Positions 932 through 62,754 of a stretch of 64,000 nucleotides of DNA are shown here, piece by piece; position 1 is the stretch's first letter; each line of letters starts with the position of its first letter. The notes beneath the pieces are model-generated. The model saw only the letters and a list, made by a program, of their open reading frames with translations, searched no databases and was not told the origin of the DNA. A program made the position numbers and the translations under genes. Source of the stretch: Mustelus asterias (Eukaryota); the NCBI RefSeq assembly GCF_964213995.1, contig NC_135806.1:105524001-105588000 (forward strand), given 5' to 3'.

Positions 932-2755
932 AATTTTGTCATTCATTTTTATTCTGATCCCAACTCAGATACAGAATGTTTCTGTTTTTTCAGTGAAAAT
1001 CTTATACAAAATCCCTTCAAGCTTCATTTTACAGGTAAAGTAACAGGAGGGGCAGGACTGGCAGCTCAATGTTCCAGGGTTCCAATGTTTCAGGCGGGAT
1101 AGAGGCAGAGGGATAAAAGGTGGGGGGGGTGGCATTGTTGGTCAGGGAAAATGTTACAGCGGTACTCAGGCAGGATAGATTAGGGAGCTTGTCTGCAGAG
1201 GCCCAATGGGTGGAGCTGAGAAACAGGAAAGGTATGACCACATGAATGGGGTTGTATTATAGACCACCCAATAGTCAGCGAGAATTGGAGGAGCAAATCT
1301 GCAGAGAGATAGCTGACAACTGCAAGAAACACAAAGTTGTGATAGTAGGGGATTTTAATTTTCCACATATAGATTGGGACTCGCATACTGTTAAAGGTTT
1401 AGACAGGATAGAGTTTGTAAAATGTGTTCAGGACAATTTTCTACATCAGTATATAGAGGTGCCAACTAGAGAGGATGCAATATTGGATCTCCTATTGGGA
1501 AATGAGTTAGGGCAGGTGATGGATGTGAGTGTGAGGGAACACTTTGGATCCAGTGATCATAATGCCATTAGTTTCAACCTGATCATGGATAAGGATAGAT
1601 CTGGTCCTCGGGTTGAAGTTCTGAACTGGAAAAAGGCCAAATTTGATTAAATGAGAAGGGATCTGGGAAGTGTGGATTGGCACAGGCTGTTCTCTGGTAA
1701 GGATGTAAATGGAAAGTGGGAGGCCTTCAAAGGAGAAATTTTGAGAGTGCAGAGTTTGTATGTTCCTGTCAGGATTAAAGGCAAAGTAAATAGGAATAAG
1801 GAACCTTCCTTCTCGAGGGAGATTGTAACACTGATTAAGAGGAAGAGAGAGTTGTATGAAATGTACAAGCAGCAAGGAACAGATCAGATGCTCGAGGAGT
1901 ATAAAAAGTACAAGAAGCTACTTAAGAGGGAAATCAGGAGGGCTAAAAGAAGACATGAGGTTGCTTTGGCAGACAGAGTGAAGGAAAATCCAAAGAGCTT
2001 CTATAGGTATGTTAGGAGCAAAAGGATAGTGAGGGATAAAATTGGTCCTCTTGAAGACCAGAGTGGTAGACTGTGTATGGAACCAAAAGAGATGGGGGAG
2101 ATACTAAATGGTTTTTTTGCATCCGTATTTACTGAGGAAACGGGCATGGAGTCTACGGAAATAGGACAAACAGGTAGGGAGGTCATGGAACCTTTACAGA
2201 TTAAAGGGGAGGAGGTGCTCGCTGTCTTGAGGCAAATCAGAGTGGATAAATCCCCAGGACCGGACAGGGTATTCCCACGGACCTTGAGGGAAGCTAGTGT
2301 TGAACTTGCAGGGGCCCTGGCAGACATATTTAAAATGTCAGTATTCACGTGGGAGGTGCCAGATGATTGGAGGGTGGCTCATGTTGTTCCGTTGTTTAAA
2401 AAAGGTTCCAAAAGAAATCCAGGAAATTATAGGCCAGTAAGTTTGACGTCGATGGTGGGCAAGTTATTGGAAGGTGTGATGAGGGATAGGATCTACAAAT
2501 ATTTGGATAGACAGGGACTTATTAGGGAGAGTCAACATGGCTTTGTGTGTGGTAGGTCATGTTTGACCAATCTATTAGAGTTTTTCGAGGAGGTTACCAG
2601 GAAAGTGGATGAAGGGAAGGCGGTGGATGTTGTCTACCTGGATTTCAGCAAGGCCTTTGACAAGGTCCCTCATGGGAGGTTAGTTAGGAAGGTTCAGTCG
2701 CTAGGTATACATGGGGAGGTAGTACATTGGATTAGACACTGGCTCAATGGAAGAA

Positions 2756-3221
2756 CACAGTAAGAAGTTTAACAACACCAGGTTAAAGTCCAACAGGTTT
2801 ATTTGGTAGCAAAAGCCACACAAGCTTTCGAAGCTCTAAGCCCCTTCTTCAGGTGAGTGGGAATTCTGTTCACAAACAGAGCTTATAAAGACACAGACTC
2901 AATTTACATGAATAATGGTTGGAATGCGAGTACTTACAACTAATCAAGTCTTTAAGAAACAAAACAATGGGAGTGGAGAGAGCATCAAGACAGGCTAAAA
3001 AGATGTGTATTGTCTCCAGACAAGACAGCCAGTGAAACTCTGCAGGTCCACGCAACTGTGGGAGTTACAAATAGTATGACATGAACCCAATATCCCGGTT
3101 GAGGCCGTCCTCGTGTGTGCGGAACTTGGCTATCAGTTTCTGCTCAGCGACTCTGCGCTGTCGTGTATCGCGAAGGCCGCCTTGGAGAACGCTTACCCGA
3201 ATATCAGAGGCCGAATGCCCG
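2756..3221 (-). mobile_element. Penelope-like element 3' fragment (GIY-YIG C-terminus + pseudo-LTR with hammerhead), 8-bp TSD
   Basis: TSD tggaagaa at 2748-2755 and 3222-3229; minus strand encodes GHSASDIRVSVLQGGLRDTRQRRVAEQKLIAKFRTHEDGLNRDIGFMSYYL*, homologous to the 31.9-32.1 kb ORF. Confidence 0.9.
2819..2855 (-). ncRNA. Minimal type-I hammerhead ribozyme motif (PLE-borne)
   Basis: cac CTGAAGA a ggggc ttaga gcttc GAAA gc tt gtg. Confidence 0.78.
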
Positions 3222-3351
3222 TGGAAGAAGCCAGAGAGTGGTTGTGGAGGATTGCTTCTCTGAGTGGAGGCCTGTGACTAGTGGTGTGCACAGTAAGAAG
3301 TTTAACAACACCAGGTTAAAGTCCAACAGGTTTATTTGGTAGCAAAAGCCA

Positions 3352-3388
3352 CACAAGCTTTCGAGGCTCTGAGCCCCTTCTTCAGGTG
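3352..3388 (-). ncRNA. Minimal type-I hammerhead ribozyme motif (left arm of fold-back PLE)
   Basis: cac CTGAAGA a ggggc tcaga gcctc GAAA gc tt gtg. Confidence 0.8.
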
Positions 3389-3918
3389 AGTGGGAATTCT
3401 GTTCACAAACAGAACTTATAAAGACACAGACTCAATTTACATGAATAATGGTTGGAATGCGAATACTTACAACTAATCCAGTCTTTAAGAAACAAAACAA
3501 TGGGAGTGGAGAGAGCATCAAGACAGGCTAAAAAGATGTGTATTGTCTCCAGTCAAGACAGCCAGTGAAACTCTGCAGGTCCACGCAACTGTGGGAGTTA
3601 CAAATAGTGTGACATAAACCCAATATCCCGGTTGAGGCCGTCCTTGTGTGTGCGGAACTTGGCTATCAGTCTCAACCGGGATATTGGGTTTATGTCACAC
3701 TATTTGTAACTCCCACAGTTGCGTGGACCTGCAGAGTTTCACTGGCTGTCTTGACTGGAGACAATACACATCTTTTTAGCCTGTCTTGATGCTCTCTCCA
3801 CTCCCATTGTTTTGTTTCTTAAAGACTGGATTAGTTGTAAGTATTCGCATTCCAACCATTATTCATGTAAATTGAGTCTGTGTCTTTATAAGTTCTGTTT
3901 GTGAACAGAATTCCCACT

Positions 3919-3955
3919 CACCTGAAGAAGGGGCTCAGAGCCTCGAAAGCTTGTG
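3919..3955 (+). ncRNA. Minimal type-I hammerhead ribozyme motif (right arm of fold-back PLE)
   Basis: cac CTGAAGA a ggggc tcaga gcctc GAAA gc tt gtg. Confidence 0.8.
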
Positions 3956-5534
3956 TGGCTTTTGCTACCAAATAAACCTGTTGGACTTTAACCTGGTGTT
4001 GTTAAACTTCTTACTGTGTTTACCCCAGTCCAACGCCGGCATCTCCACATCATGACTAGTGGTGTGCCGCAGGGATCGGTGTTGGGTCCATTGTTGTTTG
4101 TCATCTATATCAATGATCTGGATGATAATGTGGTAAATTGGATCAGCAAGTTTGCTGATGATACAAAGATTGGAGGTGCAGTGGACAGTGAGGAAGGTTT
4201 TCAAAGCTTGCAGAGGGATTTGGACCAACTAGAAAAATGGGCTGAAAAATGGCAAATGGAATTTAACGCAGACAAGTGTGAGATATTGCACATTGGAAGG
4301 ACAAACCAAAGTAGAACGTACAGGGTAAATGGTAGGACTCTGAAGAGTGCAGTTGAACAGAGGGATCTGGGAATACAGGTACAGAATTCCCTAAAAGTGA
4401 CGTCACAGGTGGATAGGGTCGTAAAGAGTGCCTTTGGTACATTGGCCTTTATAAATCGGAGTATCGAGTATAAAAGTTGGAATGAGGTTATATAAGGCAT
4501 TGGTGAGGCCGAATTTGGAGTATTGTGTACAGTTTTGGTCACCTAGTTACAGGAAGGATGTTAATAAGGTTGAAAGAGTGTAGAGAAGGTTCACAAGGAT
4601 GTTGGCGGGACTTGAGAAGCTGAGTTACAGAGAGAGATTGAAGAGGTTGGGACTTTATTCCCTGGAGCGTAGAAGATTGAGAGGAGATTTGATAGAGGTG
4701 TATAAGATTTTGATGGGTATAGATAGAGTGAATGCAAGCAGGCTTTTTCCGCTGAGGCTAGGGGAGAAAAAGACCAGAGGACATGGGTTAAGGGTGAAAG
4801 GAGAAAAGTTTAAAGGGAATATTAGGGGGGGCTTCTTCACGCAGAGAGAGTGGTGGGAGTGTGGAATGAGCTGCTGGATAAAGTGGTAAATGCGGGATCA
4901 CTTTTAACATTTAAGAAAAACTTGGACGGGTTCATGGATGAGAGGGCTGTGGAGGGATATGGTCCAAGTGCAGGTCAGTGGGACTAGGCAAAAAATGGTT
5001 CGGCACAGACAAGAAAGGCCAAAAGGCCTGTTTCTGAGCTGTAATTTTCTATGGTTTCTAACAGTTTGGAATAAATTAAATGAATTGCAAATAAGATTGC
5101 TACCCTTGGCTGGAAAAGCATGGAAGGAAATGCTAGAAGACAGACAACCTGACAACCTTTTGAAAGTTCATTTTTTAAAACATTGTTTAGTTATTCACAA
5201 TACCAAACAGCAAGGAGAGTAGAGGGAGATTTGAAAAAAAACCCAAGGATTTTATTTGTACAACAATTGTACCAATATTTGAAAAAAGGGTGAACATCTA
5301 AATCACTGCAGGGAGAAACATTGATGAGGTAACGCAGAGAAGTTAATTAAATTGAGGCACAAAATGTTAAATGGAACTTGGAAGGATGGATAGGAAGTGG
5401 GTTGAAGGATAGGAAACAAAGAGCAATCATTAAGGATGTTTTTTTAAGACTGGAGCGATGCAAAATAGTAATGTCCCCCAAGATCAGTGTCAGGACAGTA
5501 CAGTGCTTTTTTCATACTTTTGATACATGGAGCA

Positions 5535-31500: not shown

Positions 31501-32432
31501 TGGTCCAGTCCAGTACTTCCCCGGAGTGGAGAAACGACATCTTCTTCGAAGCTTTCAATATGTCATCGATGAAGACAAACATCTTGCCAAGGCCATCTCC
31601 ACACTCCCACTACTTGCCTTCAAACAACCGCACAACGTCAAACAGATCATTGTTCAAAGCAAATATCCAGCCTTCAGGAGAACAGCAACCACACCACTAC
31701 ACAACCCTGCCACGGCAACCTCTGCAAAACGTGCCGGATCATCAACACGGATACCACCATCATACATGAGAACACCACCCATCAGGTACACAGTACATAC
31801 TCATGCGACTCGGCCAACGTTGTCTACCTCACACGCTGCAGGAAAGGATGTCCCGAGGCGCGGTACATTGGCGAGACCGTGCAGATACTACGACAATGGA
31901 TGAACGGACACCGCGTGACAATTGCCAGGCAGGAGTGTTCCCTTCCAGTCGGGCAACACTTCAGCAGTCAAGGGCATTCAGCCTCTGATTTTCAGGTAAG
32001 CATTCTCCAAGGTGGCCTTCAAGACACACGACAATGCATAATCGCCGAACAGAAACTGATAGCCAAGTTCCACATGCATGAGGACGGCCTCAACCGGGAT
32101 CTTGAGTTCATGTCACACTACATGTAACCCCCCACCATTTGGCCTAGGCTTGCAAAATCCTACTAACTGTCCTGGATTGAAACAATTCACACCTCTTTAA
32201 CTTGTTATTATTTCTCTCTCCACTCGCACTGTCTGTACCTGTAAAGACTTGATGACCTGTAAAGACTCGCATTATCATTAACATAACCATTACCTTGCAA
32301 TTGTGTCTCTGTCTACACATGCTGTATTTGTGAACCCACCTCTCCACTCACCTGATGAAGGAGCAGCACTCCGAAAGCTCGTGATTCCAAGTAAACTTAT
32401 TAGACTTTAACCTGGTGTTGTGAGACTTCTTA
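31501..32432 (+). mobile_element. Neptune-type Penelope-like element 3' fragment (Cys-rich linker + GIY-YIG endonuclease + pseudo-LTR), frameshifted
   Basis: PLLAFKQPHN..QPCHGNLCKTC..SCDSANVVYLTRCRKGCPEARYIGETVQILRQWMNGH..VGQHF..AEQKLI..GLNRD; TSD ctatgatcttattg (31487-31500) / ctatggtcttattg (32433-32446). Confidence 0.9.
32348..32384 (+). ncRNA. Minimal type-I hammerhead ribozyme motif
   Basis: tcac CTGATGA a ggagc agc actcc GAAA gc tc gtga; one stem II mismatch; CUC cleavage triplet. Confidence 0.8.
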
Positions 32433-32669
32433 CTATGGTCTTATTGAATGGCAGAGCGGGCTTAAGCGCCGAGTGGCCTACTCATGCTCCTAACTCATAT
32501 ATTCCTATGAAATACCCTTACAATAAATGCCAACCAACATTCCATTTGCCTTCCTAATCATTTGATGCGCCTACATACTAACTTTTTGTACCAGGACACT
32601 GACATCCCTCTGTACTGTAGAGCTTTACAGTCTCCATTCAAATGGTAAATTGTTTTTGTGTTCTTCCCA

Positions 32670-47568: not shown

Positions 47569-48239
47569 AAATCAAATCAAATCAATCATGGGCTCCAAAT
47601 TCAGCTAGGTAGCCAGATTTTCTGTCACCATGGGTGCAGCTTTTCCTCCAAAATGGCATTTTCAATACGCAAAACCTCTGGTGCTGGCCATAGCATATGC
47701 CATTTTGATACAGTGATTAGAGTGAGTGCAGGGACTATCTGCTAGAGGTTTGCAGAGTAGGTTTGATTTGATGCCAGTGCTGTCACAGTGGAGCTCAGCG
47801 TTCCAGCTCATGCTCCAATCACCTCCCATAGTTGAAACAGACATTCAGCAGAAGGAAGGATTCTCAACCAGTGCTATTTAAAGGGATGATCAACTAATTT
47901 CAGTTTAGTCGCTGAATGATTTCTACTGGATCTTGTTGACATTTTGGAAGTATTTGCTGATTTCCAGAGTTGTTAAAAGCTGCTAAGATTGACAGGGCGC
48001 AGGTAGGGTACATGGTGAAGAACTCTGTCCTGACTTAAAGGATTCTCCATAAACCACTTTCTCCCAGACACAAATGCAGTAGTATGCATTCCCCTGAGGC
48101 CATACCATGACAGCAGGAATGAGCAAATGACACGCAAGCTGTGGGAAGAGGGAGGAGGTGGGCCTGGAGAGCGGCACCCAGCATAACACGATATCCATTC
48201 AGTATGTTCATGGAGCAATTCTCCTACCTGAAATTCAAT

Positions 48240-48312
48240 AAGTAGTCTCACAACACCAGGTTAAAGTCCAACAGGTTTATTTGGTAGCATGAGCTTTCGG
48301 AGCGCCGCTCCA
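48240..48312 (-). mobile_element. 73-bp PLE pseudo-LTR stub truncated inside the hammerhead
   Basis: Same caacaccaggttaaagtccaacaggtttatttggtagc end; TSD aaattcaat at 48231-48239 and 48313-48321. Confidence 0.85.
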
Positions 48313-55499: not shown

Positions 55500-55749
55500 C
55501 GATGGTAGTCATGATGTGGAGATGCCGGCGTTGGACTGGGGTAAGCACAGTAAGAAGTCTCACAACACCAGGTTAAAGTCCAACAGGTTTATTTGGTAGC
55601 AAATACCATAAGCTTTCGGAGCACTGCTCCTTCGTCAGATGGAGTGGTCTCTGTTCCTGACGAAGGAGCAGTGCTCCGAAAGCTTATGGTATTTGCTACC
55701 AAATAAACCTGTTGGACTTTAACCTGGTGTTGTGAGACTTCTTACTGTG
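55500..55749. mobile_element. Miniature fold-back PLE (99-bp arms, 18-nt spacer, tail), 11-bp TSD
   Basis: Arms 55540-55638 and 55657-55755; TSD cttaccaacgc at 55489-55499 and 55750-55760. Confidence 0.9.
55606..55642 (-). ncRNA. Minimal type-I hammerhead ribozyme motif
   Basis: ccat CTGACGA a ggagc agt gctcc GAAA gc tt atgg. Confidence 0.82.
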
Positions 55750-56858
55750 CTTACCAACGCAACAGTTCCCGGGACTTAGTCTCAAGCAGTACCTCTTCCA
55801 GCCACTGCAGTACTGTTCCTAGATGGGCAGGGGAACTATCAGCCAATATGATTAGTCAATAACTCTTCAGGGCAGAACTTCCTCCAAGTGTGGCCGGGCG
55901 TCCCACCGGCTACCAGTCATCGCTTATTAGAGTGTGAAATGGCAGCAGCCCTGTCAGAGTCTGCGGGCGTGCATTCCTCTGAAAGTTCCCCTTGGCATCC
56001 TGAAAATTCAGGCCTATTAGATAATTTGACTTATTCTCAGATGCCGATCATTCAAACTTATTGTACAATGTCGATTTCATTGTGGACTGCTACAGCAAAC
56101 AAATTCCTAAGTCAAGTTATTTCACCAAGAGCCAGGAACGTACTGGATGATGATATGGAATGCAGAACACAAATAAACATACACGCACTTTCCTCATCTT
56201 TTTGGGTCTCCCTTTACCAAACGCCTTGTTGCTCTTCAACTATGGCAGCAGGTCGACAATCTATTTTCAGACCTTGGCGAACCTCAATATAAAAACGTAT
56301 GAATTAGAAGCAGCAGTACATACAAATTAGGCCACTCAGCCACTCGAGTCTGCTCCATCATGCAATAGGTTCATGACTAATCTGATTGTAACCTCAACAC
56401 CACATTCCCACCTAGCCCTGATTAACCTTTCACCCTGTGTTTATTATGAATCTATCTAACTCTGCCTTAAAAATATTCAAAGACTCTGGCTGGGGTTTTT
56501 CCAGACCAACCGTGCAGCCCAGCCAAAGATCCACTAACTTTCAAGCAGGACTGGACGATCCCAGGGATGGCTGAGGCTAAAAAATCCCACCTTCTTCATC
56601 CACTTGCCTTTGAGGAAGTGAGTTCCAAAGACTCAGAACCCTCAGAGAAAACAAATTCTCTTAATCTCTGTCTTAAATAGGCGACCGCTTATTTTTAAAC
56701 AGTGACTCATAATACTAATTAGATTCTCCAACAGAGGTAACATTCTTTCCATATCTGCCCCTGTCAAGACCCCTATGGATCTTTTATGTTTCAATCAAGT
56801 CAACTCCTACTCTTCTAAACTCTAGTGAATACAAGCCTGGCCTGTCCAACCTTTCCTC

Positions 56859-57208
56859 TTACTGTGTTTACCCCAGTCCAACGCCGGCATCTCCACACTA
56901 TCAGTAACCCCCACAGCTTGCCTCCTGGACTTGCAGAATCTCACTAGCTGTCCTGTCTGGAGACAATACACATCTCTTCAACCTGTGCTTAATGCTCCCT
57001 CCACTCACATTGTCTGTATCTTTAAGACCTGGTTGGTTGTAGAGATTCGCATTCTAATCAGTATTCTGTAACTTGATTTTGTGTCTCTGTGCCCTGTTTG
57101 AGAGCAGATTTCCACTCCATCTGACGAAGGAGCAGCGCTCCGAAAGCTAATGGCATTTGCTACCAAATAAACCTGTTGGACTTTAACCTGGTGTTGTTAA
57201 AACTCTTA
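56859..57208 (+). mobile_element. ~350-nt ORF-less, unit-length PLE derivative with hammerhead (retrozyme-like), 12-bp TSD
   Basis: Order: tail (ttactgtgtttaccccagtccaacgccggcatctccaca), ORF end (ctatcagTAA), pseudo-LTR, hammerhead, ctctta; TSD caacctttcctc at 56847-56858 and 57209-57220. Confidence 0.88.
57117..57153 (+). ncRNA. Minimal type-I hammerhead ribozyme motif (CUA triplet)
   Basis: ccat CTGACGA a ggagc agc gctcc GAAA gc ta atgg. Confidence 0.85.
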
Positions 57209-57487
57209 CAACCTTTCCTCATCAGACAACCTGCTCATACCAGGTATTAGGCTACTAAAACTTCTCTGAACTGCTTCATTATGGTTGTGGAAGACCAATC
57301 AGCCCTATTTAATTCATTAAATATAAACTCCTCCCTATTACAAGATCTAATTGTTTCAAATCATTCCATGCATCTTTCCTCCATGATCTTACCTGGAGGT
57401 CTATTCCAAATGATCATTTATTTGTATTTCAAGAACCATAAAACCACATATTTACCCCACTAATCCCCCTTAATCTACACACCTTGG

Positions 57488-57690
57488 GATAGTAAAGGAC
57501 AATTTACCATGACCAACCACCCAACCTGCACATTTTTGGACTGTGAGAGGAAACCAGAGCTCTCAATGGAAACCCATGCAAACATGGAGAGAACATGTAA
57601 ACGCCACACAGTCACCCAAGTCAGGAATTGAACCGGGGTCCCTGGCACTGTGAGGCAACAGTGCTAACCACGGTGCCACCGTGCTGCCCT
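57488..57690 (-). mobile_element. HE1-type SINE
   Basis: gtgctaaccacggtgccaccgtgctgccc (reverse complement of head). Confidence 0.8.
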
Positions 57691-60880: not shown

Positions 60881-61382
60881 ATGTTCCACCTCCCTGCCCG
60901 ATTTCCTTTCTCCAGGCTTTTAAATCTCTCCTCATAGCTTCGGTTTTCAGAGCTTGGTGTTGGTAGCATTATCCTACACTGCCTCCAATGTCTGAATGTC
61001 TTGTTATGATGCTGTAAAGAATGCTGTACACTCCAGAAACCAAATTTCAGTCGACCTGGGAAAAAGCACCTTAGTTGCCTCAATTGATTGTCCACTGCTT
61101 GTGGACAGGTAGATGTATCATCTCAGACCCTGCCTTCTTGATAATGACTTGGGAGCACGATGGTGCTGGTAAACTAGCAAAGCCAACTAGCAGTGCCACG
61201 TAGAAACCAAAAACATAACCGAGTAGTCAGCAGGGGTTTCGAAAGGAAAGATCATGCTTGGACGACCTTACTGATTTATTTGAAGAAGTAACAGAAATAG
61301 CAGACAAGGGAAATGCATAGTAGGCGCATGACTCATTTTAGAATCAGCAAACAGGTAGAAGGACAGATAGCAAGCTGGCTAC

Positions 61383-61570
61383 TTTAAGACCTGGCTGGCT
61401 GTAGGGATTCGCATTCTAATCAGTATTCTGTAACTTGATTTTGTGTCTCTGTGCACTGTTTGAGAGCACATTTCCACTTCATCTGACGAAGGAGCAGCGC
61501 TCCGAAAGCTTATGGTATTTGCTACCAAATAAACCTGTTGGACTTTAACCTGGTGTTGTTAAAACTCTTA
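61383..61570 (+). mobile_element. 5'-truncated PLE pseudo-LTR (same subfamily as 56859-57208) inside a CR1 fragment
   Basis: Near-identical to ~57020-57208; short ctac duplication at the ends. Confidence 0.85.
61479..61515 (+). ncRNA. Minimal type-I hammerhead ribozyme motif
   Basis: tcat CTGACGA a ggagc agc gctcc GAAA gc tt atgg. Confidence 0.8.
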
Positions 61571-62754
61571 CTACAAAACAGAAAACAGAGGGTATGTTTC
61601 AAATGTTAGTGAGGGCAGTACTGTTGGCTGGTGGGCCCAGAACGTGGCACTGCTAGTTGGCACTGCTAGTTTACCAGCATCATCCTGCTCCCAAGTCATT
61701 ATCAAGAAGGCAGGGTCTGAGATGGTACATCTACCTGTCCACAAGCAGTGGACAACCAATTGAGGTAACTAAGGTGCTTTTCCCAGGTCGACTGAAATTT
61801 TTGGCTTGCAAACCCCAAACTGTGGCTGAAGGATGGCCAGTGAAAACAGGTGACCTCCTGAGGGGAGACCATAGTGGGCAGGACTCCAGAAAAGATTCCC
61901 TCTCCACAATAGCAGTTGTGGACGATCTGATTATTCAAAACTTTCAAAATGCTGAGAAGGCAATTCCATCATCCATCGCTCTCTCCCTTCCATTGACAGG
62001 CTGCAGCTCTCTCAGCACTGGACAGTCTCCTATTGGCTCCCCAGAATCAGGAGCACACCCAGCATCCTTAGTTGGACAGCAAGTGCATCATTTGGCCAGT
62101 AATTGGCCATTGCTACAAAAAATTGTGACAGATGACCGTTTCCAACATGATGCAGGGTTGAGACCTGAAACTTGTCCCGGGTCGAGCTCCCCACTCCAAA
62201 TGAAAATTCAGCCCTGAGAGTAGCGGGTATTATGTCTCAAGTTTCTCAGAAGTCTGAAAAAAAATCACATTTTAGACACAAATACTGGAGCTGAGATTGA
62301 GTATACTTTTCAGATCTAACCACCTTCTACGGAATGATACACTCTCTCTAACAGACCTTGAAGCGAGGAGAACACGAGAGTTCCATGGCAAGAGCTTGCA
62401 CATGGCATCCTTTAACATGGACGTACTGGTGCGCTGCGTCTACTGCATGGCCGACCAGTAAGCTCTTCCATTCTTACCTCCTGCCATAGATGTGTTTGAA
62501 TGACTTACAGGTTGACAATCAATTCAATGAACACACCTTTCATGGAAATCAAGTTCTGCATGGACTGGAACGTGAACTCAGATCACCCAGGTTGCAGTTA
62601 TGGACATACCTGCTGCAACACAAGCCCTCCTGCAGAATGATACACTGTTGATTTGGTACACCGATCATAATGCTGTAGTGAGTGATGTGGCATCCTGGAT
62701 TAGCATGTATACATGCACATAACAACATAGTTCCTGACTCTTATTGAATAAAAT

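Follow-up and report, generated by a model that had tools for sequence, protein, structure and literature searches.

A truncated EN+ PLE insertion with an unusual direct tail-first join in Mustelus asterias, probably the product of a one-off template jump

According to the available parts of Craig et al. 2021 (PMC8557442), a CX2-5CxxC linker before the GIY-YIG domain is a mark of Neptune and Nematis PLEs, and tails at either end of a copy are a known PLE feature. In an Anolis PLE the tail was shown to lie between two internal start sites (PMC11167929); the portions of that paper at hand describe no template jumps between the two sites, and RNA ends at the hammerhead cut site were looked for in that study and not found. 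Single minimal hammerhead motifs were not cleaved in vitro and dimers were cleaved at a low level, as far as the accessible text of PMC4209133 goes. Circular RNA of retrozymes was shown in coral, mussel and axolotl (excerpts of PMC7229834 and 10.64898/2026.07.22.740005), and in the accessible part of the latter paper Li et al. 2026 argued for an origin of animal retrozymes in PLE pLTRs. A literature search on sharks yielded nothing beyond the ecology of hammerhead sharks and related subjects.

The DNA analysed was a window of 64,000 nucleotides from Mustelus asterias (contig NC_135806.1, positions 105,524,001 to 105,588,000). The insert proper at 56859-57208 comprises 350 nt inside a single 12-bp target-site duplication (TSD) and is a truncated EN+ PLE insertion with an unusual direct tail-first join (Table 1). 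A sequence-only reading had already described the TSDs, the start with the family tail, the jump at CACA to the last ORF codons and the run through the pLTR and a hammerhead, and all of these were confirmed. The flanks, less one copy of the TSD, aligned across the join with intact copies of an older host repeat (L011, L019, L058) at 70-77% identity; the TSD is therefore a true insertion scar. The tail (56857-56897) was identical to 4009-4049 at 41 of 41 positions and showed 97.6% identity to 55555-55515. No duplicated target was present between tail and body, and the final CTC of the left TSD also matches the element just upstream of the tail, giving microhomology at the 5' join. The body differed from the nearest of 25 compared copies at 4 of 314 positions and is therefore fairly young; two of its letters were absent from all 25 copies.

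The sequence-only reading had further placed the same 7-mer, CTCTTAC, at both ends and had taken the insert for one full turn of a unit. The letters are indeed present at both ends, but the 5' CTC and the final 3' C belong to the TSD, and the insert proper exceeds one turn by 3 nt (TTA). In this PLE family CTCTTAC is just the common short 3' end, where reverse transcription presumably starts. The stretch 61383-61570 had been assigned to the same subfamily; a 95%-identical, 5'-truncated relative does lie at 61382-61572, but nothing links it to the junction.

Table 1. Features of the insert and its borders, in positions of the window.
Feature	Position	Strand	Remark
Left target-site duplication CAACCTTTCCTC	56847..56858	.	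12 bp
Right target-site duplication CAACCTTTCCTC	57209..57220	.	
PLE tail (5' leader immediately before ORF start), from short end site to CTCCACA	56859..56897	+	
Tail joined to ORF end through CACA microhomology; junction single-copy	56894..56897	+	
Last GIY-YIG ORF codons, His-Tyr-Gln-stop	56894..56907	+	TAA at 56905-56907
pLTR / 3' non-coding part, abundant subfamily	56908..57208	+	
Minimal type I hammerhead, one copy	57117..57153	+	
CTCTTAC, short 3' end of the family	57203..57209	+	final C common to TSD

Both outer borders of the insert were covered by contigs of sequencing run X1, which may be the source sample. The inner join was bridged by none of the sequencing-run contigs among the matches listed. 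One contig of run X3, which carries another organism code, covered 57182-57490 with 8 differences; it had fewer than 31 letters on the insert side and was not counted as bridging. Contig joints that seemed to go backwards were rejected, as in other copies the pLTR ordinarily runs on into the tail in this way.

On their upstream side, copies of this subfamily extend into an ORF that has a GIY-YIG domain, and in most of 30 loci the ORF end was contiguous with the pLTR type of the insert. One such copy (L006) matched Pfam GIY-YIG with an E value of 3.5e-4 and 21.3 bits, just below the cut-off of 22.6, and the fragment in the window gave no Pfam GIY-YIG match. A CX4CxxC linker before GIY-YIG, of the PCHSNLCKTC type, was present in most of 28 translated matches. 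By these sequence features, namely the GIY-YIG end, the linker, the pLTR with hammerhead, the optional tail and the TSD, the parent would be classed as an EN+ PLE of Neptune/Nematis type. The Neptune origin proposed earlier was thus supported at the level of type by the C-terminal GIY-YIG domain and the CX4CxxC motif preceding it; the label itself rests on the linker motif and the reported vertebrate distribution.

In the genome (3.68 Gb) a 22-mer of the ORF end occurred in 3,195 exact copies and a 26-mer of the tail in 67,692. As 61 pLTR 3' ends were found in 614 kb of unselected sequence, the family was estimated at a few hundred thousand copies; the copies examined were mostly short and 5'-truncated. 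Judged by eye, the 61 ends fell mostly into a short class (CTTAC/TGTG) and a long class (CTCCACATC/ATG), between which lies the tail of about 40 nt, and inverted pairs usually carried an end of either class. With matched filters, 352 tail starts were counted at -4..0 of the short site and 277 at +4..+8, so that a stop at the short site is barely enriched; the pile-up there is weak and the stop is not a strong rule.

Several subfamilies of the family are present in the window itself (2744-4058, 55506-55755, 31800-32437, 48236-48311 and 61382-61572); among these copies are inverted pairs in which a short end is combined with a long one. Elsewhere, TSD-flanked micro-insertions of about 45 nt that consist of the tail only were seen (L203-L218; about 12 of 20 examined). 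Short end and tail start together read CTTAC..TGTGTTTACCCCAG (57195-57209 with 56859-56876; also 4005-4028), which we take to resemble a branch point and 3' splice acceptor immediately before the ORF start.

The hammerhead of the insert corresponds to the minimal type I motif as defined in the available text of Cervera and de la Pena 2014 (PMC4209133). It consists of stem I CCAU/AUGG (4 bp), CUGACGA, an extra A, stem II GGAGC/GCUCC (5 bp) and GAAA-GC-UA; the CUGANGA/GAAA/UH core, the extra base after A9 and the palindromic 15.2-16.2 (AGCU) are all present. The cut site is predicted between 57149 and 57150, and the motif is predicted to be of the dimer-dependent type. Stem I varies on both sides between subfamilies (CAC/GUG versus CCAU/AUGG), and H17 was a G in only 2 of 222 motifs from partly overlapping loci. 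Rfam at the gathering threshold gave no match in the window, because minimal hammerheads are too reduced for its models. Folding of the approximately 350-nt unit was unremarkable (z -0.38), and neither the unit nor its parts gave a signal over shuffles. Since the insert has only one hammerhead core, no cut-to-cut monomer can be released from it.

The insert is probably the outcome of a single template jump in the course of target-primed reverse transcription, an explanation in which good confidence is placed. After target cleavage, the Neptune-type reverse transcriptase/endonuclease would start at the short site, copy about 310 nt and stop within the last ORF codons. The end of the cDNA would then re-prime through CACA on a tail; a different RNA might have supplied it, or it might lie farther downstream in the same molecule, or upstream across the ORF. 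This tail would be copied to about the short site, and the cDNA would be joined to the target through the CTC microhomology. The apparent full turn would then follow from the two start sites, and no circle is needed.

For such a jump speaks that the junction is single-copy while both of its halves are abundant. The two end classes agree with the pair of internal start sites known from the Anolis PLE (PMC11167929). Joins of tail to body also occur at many different positions, five anchors giving 2, 56, 16, 114 and 7 exact matches in overlapping sets, and near-analogues exist as single inserts inside one 10-14-bp TSD (L235, L083, L073, L094, L098, L108). Against it stands the rarity of the exact layout, tail and body following directly on each other in 0 of 20 target-flanked short-site tails (the first 20 matches in which the 13 letters upstream bore no resemblance to the element), together with the scarcely enriched stop at the short site. 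The jump itself is presumed from the arrangement of the letters, which would fit a later deletion equally well. The insert, with one hammerhead and no ORF, is most likely a dead-on-arrival copy without function or descendants. Of the origin proposed in the sequence-only reading, the microhomology join and the copying by PLE reverse transcription can be kept, but not the mini-element.

A later deletion is an unlikely alternative to the template jump. A near-full-length copy starting at the short site would have been inserted with the same TSD, and the ORF would have been lost afterwards between two CACA words. The 4 nt of microhomology at the join agree with this course, microhomology deletions in PLE copies are reported in the available part of PMC3846280, and the ORF start is joined to the pLTR at other loci (L139, L157, L094, L097). 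A copy of about 3 kb whose start falls no more than a few nt from the short site would nevertheless be required, while the copies examined were mostly short and 5'-truncated, and the identity of start and end position would become a coincidence.

It is very unlikely that the insert was copied, in a single turn, from a tandem or circular RNA of an ORF-deleted mini-element of about 347 nt, a retrozyme. The geometry of the insert fits one turn. Three identical turns of 94 or 99 nt inside one TSD at other loci (L083-L085, L105) indicate that rolling or repeated copying occurs in the family, and retrozyme units average 363 bp in one surveyed chondrichthyan, according to the accessible text of 10.64898/2026.07.22.740005. 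The insert also resembles a retrozyme in being non-coding, in its length within 150-400 nt, in its type I hammerhead and in its large TSD, but it is neither a tandem of at least two complete hammerhead units nor a member of a multi-copy family with a shared unit. The earlier proposal of a non-autonomous mini-element or retrozyme copied from circular or tandem RNA had named a junction confined to this locus as evidence against itself; at the DNA level this is what the genome search gave, as a 22-mer across the junction occurred once in 3.68 Gb. When 2 mismatches were permitted, only two extra matches appeared, both of them a tail followed by chance flank, and a gapped search (tail, 0-30 nt, stop region) recovered, besides this locus, a single join of another kind. 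The genome searches gave no donor and no further copy of the CACA junction, permuted and tandem ones included. Head-to-tail arrays of the approximately 350-nt unit, for which a search had also been suggested, were absent from the 30 examined of 446 same-strand pairs spaced 316-376 nt; these were mostly independent neighbours, with a few unique internal joins and one 158-nt array. Further points against a circular or tandem template are the single hammerhead, of a minimal kind that in the available part of PMC4209133 was not cleaved in vitro as a single motif, and the unremarkable fold of the whole unit. At the DNA level this origin is largely refuted.

Least probable, and highly improbable in itself, are two insertions at one target, with a micro-insertion of the tail alone at the 5' border of a truncated copy: TSD-flanked inserts of this tail-only kind are frequent, one target can receive successive inserts (L069, L071, L072, L081) and a nested self-insertion hot spot lies elsewhere in the pLTR, but the known cases have target letters between the pieces or the 5' part of the older copy upstream, both absent here, and one TSD encloses both tail and body.

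Near the ribozyme, the 56 tail-to-body matches represent 49 distinct strings. Eleven of the 49 join exactly at the predicted cut site and 17 lie within 0 to +2 of it (p ~1e-8 under a crude uniform null of 45 positions that ignores truncation bias). The 11 strings correspond to 10 loci, 7 enclosed by a single TSD and free of target letters at the join, 1 with target copies inside and 2 without assignment. The joins were mostly blunt, and microhomology is therefore not their explanation. The 11 joins at the cut site may record cleavage in vivo, after which the template was switched by a jump. Ordinary 5' ends showed no clear peak at the cut site (71 matches, filter pass 0.094); at -5 there were 64 (pass 0.176), many from one recurrent internal deletion, and at +4 there were 137 (pass 0.094), about half of them fold-backs, all pass rates having been estimated by hand from base composition.

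The cut-site joins were found at L068, L073, L083-L085, L089-L090, L097, L098 and L112 (also L074, L087, L094, L105 and L108). The three turns at L083-L085 (G000:C11:97707650-97707885; 94 nt each) and at L105 (G000:C20:76093080-76093231; 99 nt each) run from the cut site to the tail and are compatible with rolling on a minicircle or with repeated jumps on one RNA. At L089/L090 two turns differ by one G.

One junction recurred at 35 loci (L225-L244 examined among them). Of the 20 loci examined, 9 had an exact TSD of 12-16 nt behind older pLTR sequence, and about 5 more were recognized by eye; in these, a new copy has entered an older pLTR at a point some 25 nt upstream of the hammerhead core. 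These insertions were primed with ATG/TG microhomology, and several of them leave two hammerhead cores 158-162 nt apart. The junction had been considered as a 158-nt retrozyme family; this was rejected, as with these TSDs it represents mainly nested self-insertion. One array of 158-nt units (L135/L136, G000:C1:15480205-15480694) has grown from a nested insertion and contains three intact hammerheads, and it is therefore a tandem in the sense of Li et al. 2026, as far as the available text defines it. A route from the hot spot through hammerhead dimers to the birth of retrozymes would thus be plausible.

Other short tandems were seen at G000:C3:13497675 and G000:C8:21788744, and pieces of the hammerhead region form short tandem arrays of about 77 and about 31 nt (G000:C4:112498296, C18:34326135). 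The same tail-to-pLTR join, at TGGAG, was present at G000:C3:22126796, C5:118936942 and C10:104803226 and may mark a second self-insertion hot spot.

A wider reading, held at slightly better than even confidence, places the locus in a class of fossil template jumps. In the germ line the minimal hammerhead would cut the RNA of the element; on reaching the cut end, the reverse transcriptase would run off and jump or roll to the tail. The hot spot upstream would build 158-nt dimers that seed retrozyme arrays.

The locus at 56847-57220 is itself of little weight, being a single scrambled copy in a family whose size is estimated at a few hundred thousand; the pattern across the family weighs more. 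A genome with so many PLE copies allows in vivo hammerhead cleavage to be tested by the statistics of joins, and the 2024 Anolis study (PMC11167929) found no RNA ends at the cut site. For the proposed origin of retrozymes in pLTRs, the self-insertion hot spot supplies a concrete initial event. A literature search, with subscription papers such as Arkhipova 2006 and 2017 outside its scope, found no paper reporting either the cut-site join pattern or the hot-spot dimers.

Compared with the Neptune/Nematis-type PLEs of Craig et al. 2021 (PMC8557442, as far as available), the parent has the same GIY-YIG domain, linker, pLTR hammerhead and optional tail of 30-40 nt, and partial tandems, inverted 5' pieces and a short TSD are likewise shared. 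The insert differs in that the tail stands at the 5' end in direct orientation and is joined to the ORF end, while the usual extra 5' piece is inverted. In the Poseidon element PAc of Anolis two end classes bound the tail as they do here, and insertion into its own pLTR, proposed there in the accessible text of Frangieh et al. 2024 (PMC11167929), was seen here at the hot spot; PAc belongs to another clade, however, and in the present family the tail extends as far as the ORF start codon, with the entire hammerhead upstream of the ORF. With the animal non-LTR retrozymes, as described in the available parts of Cervera and de la Pena 2020 (PMC7229834) and Li et al. 2026, the insert shares its non-coding nature, a length of about 350 nt, the type I hammerhead, the large TSD and the kinship with PLE pLTRs. 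Those retrozymes form multi-copy families with tandems of at least two hammerhead units, whereas the insert occurs in one copy only, as a monomer that carries a single minimal hammerhead.
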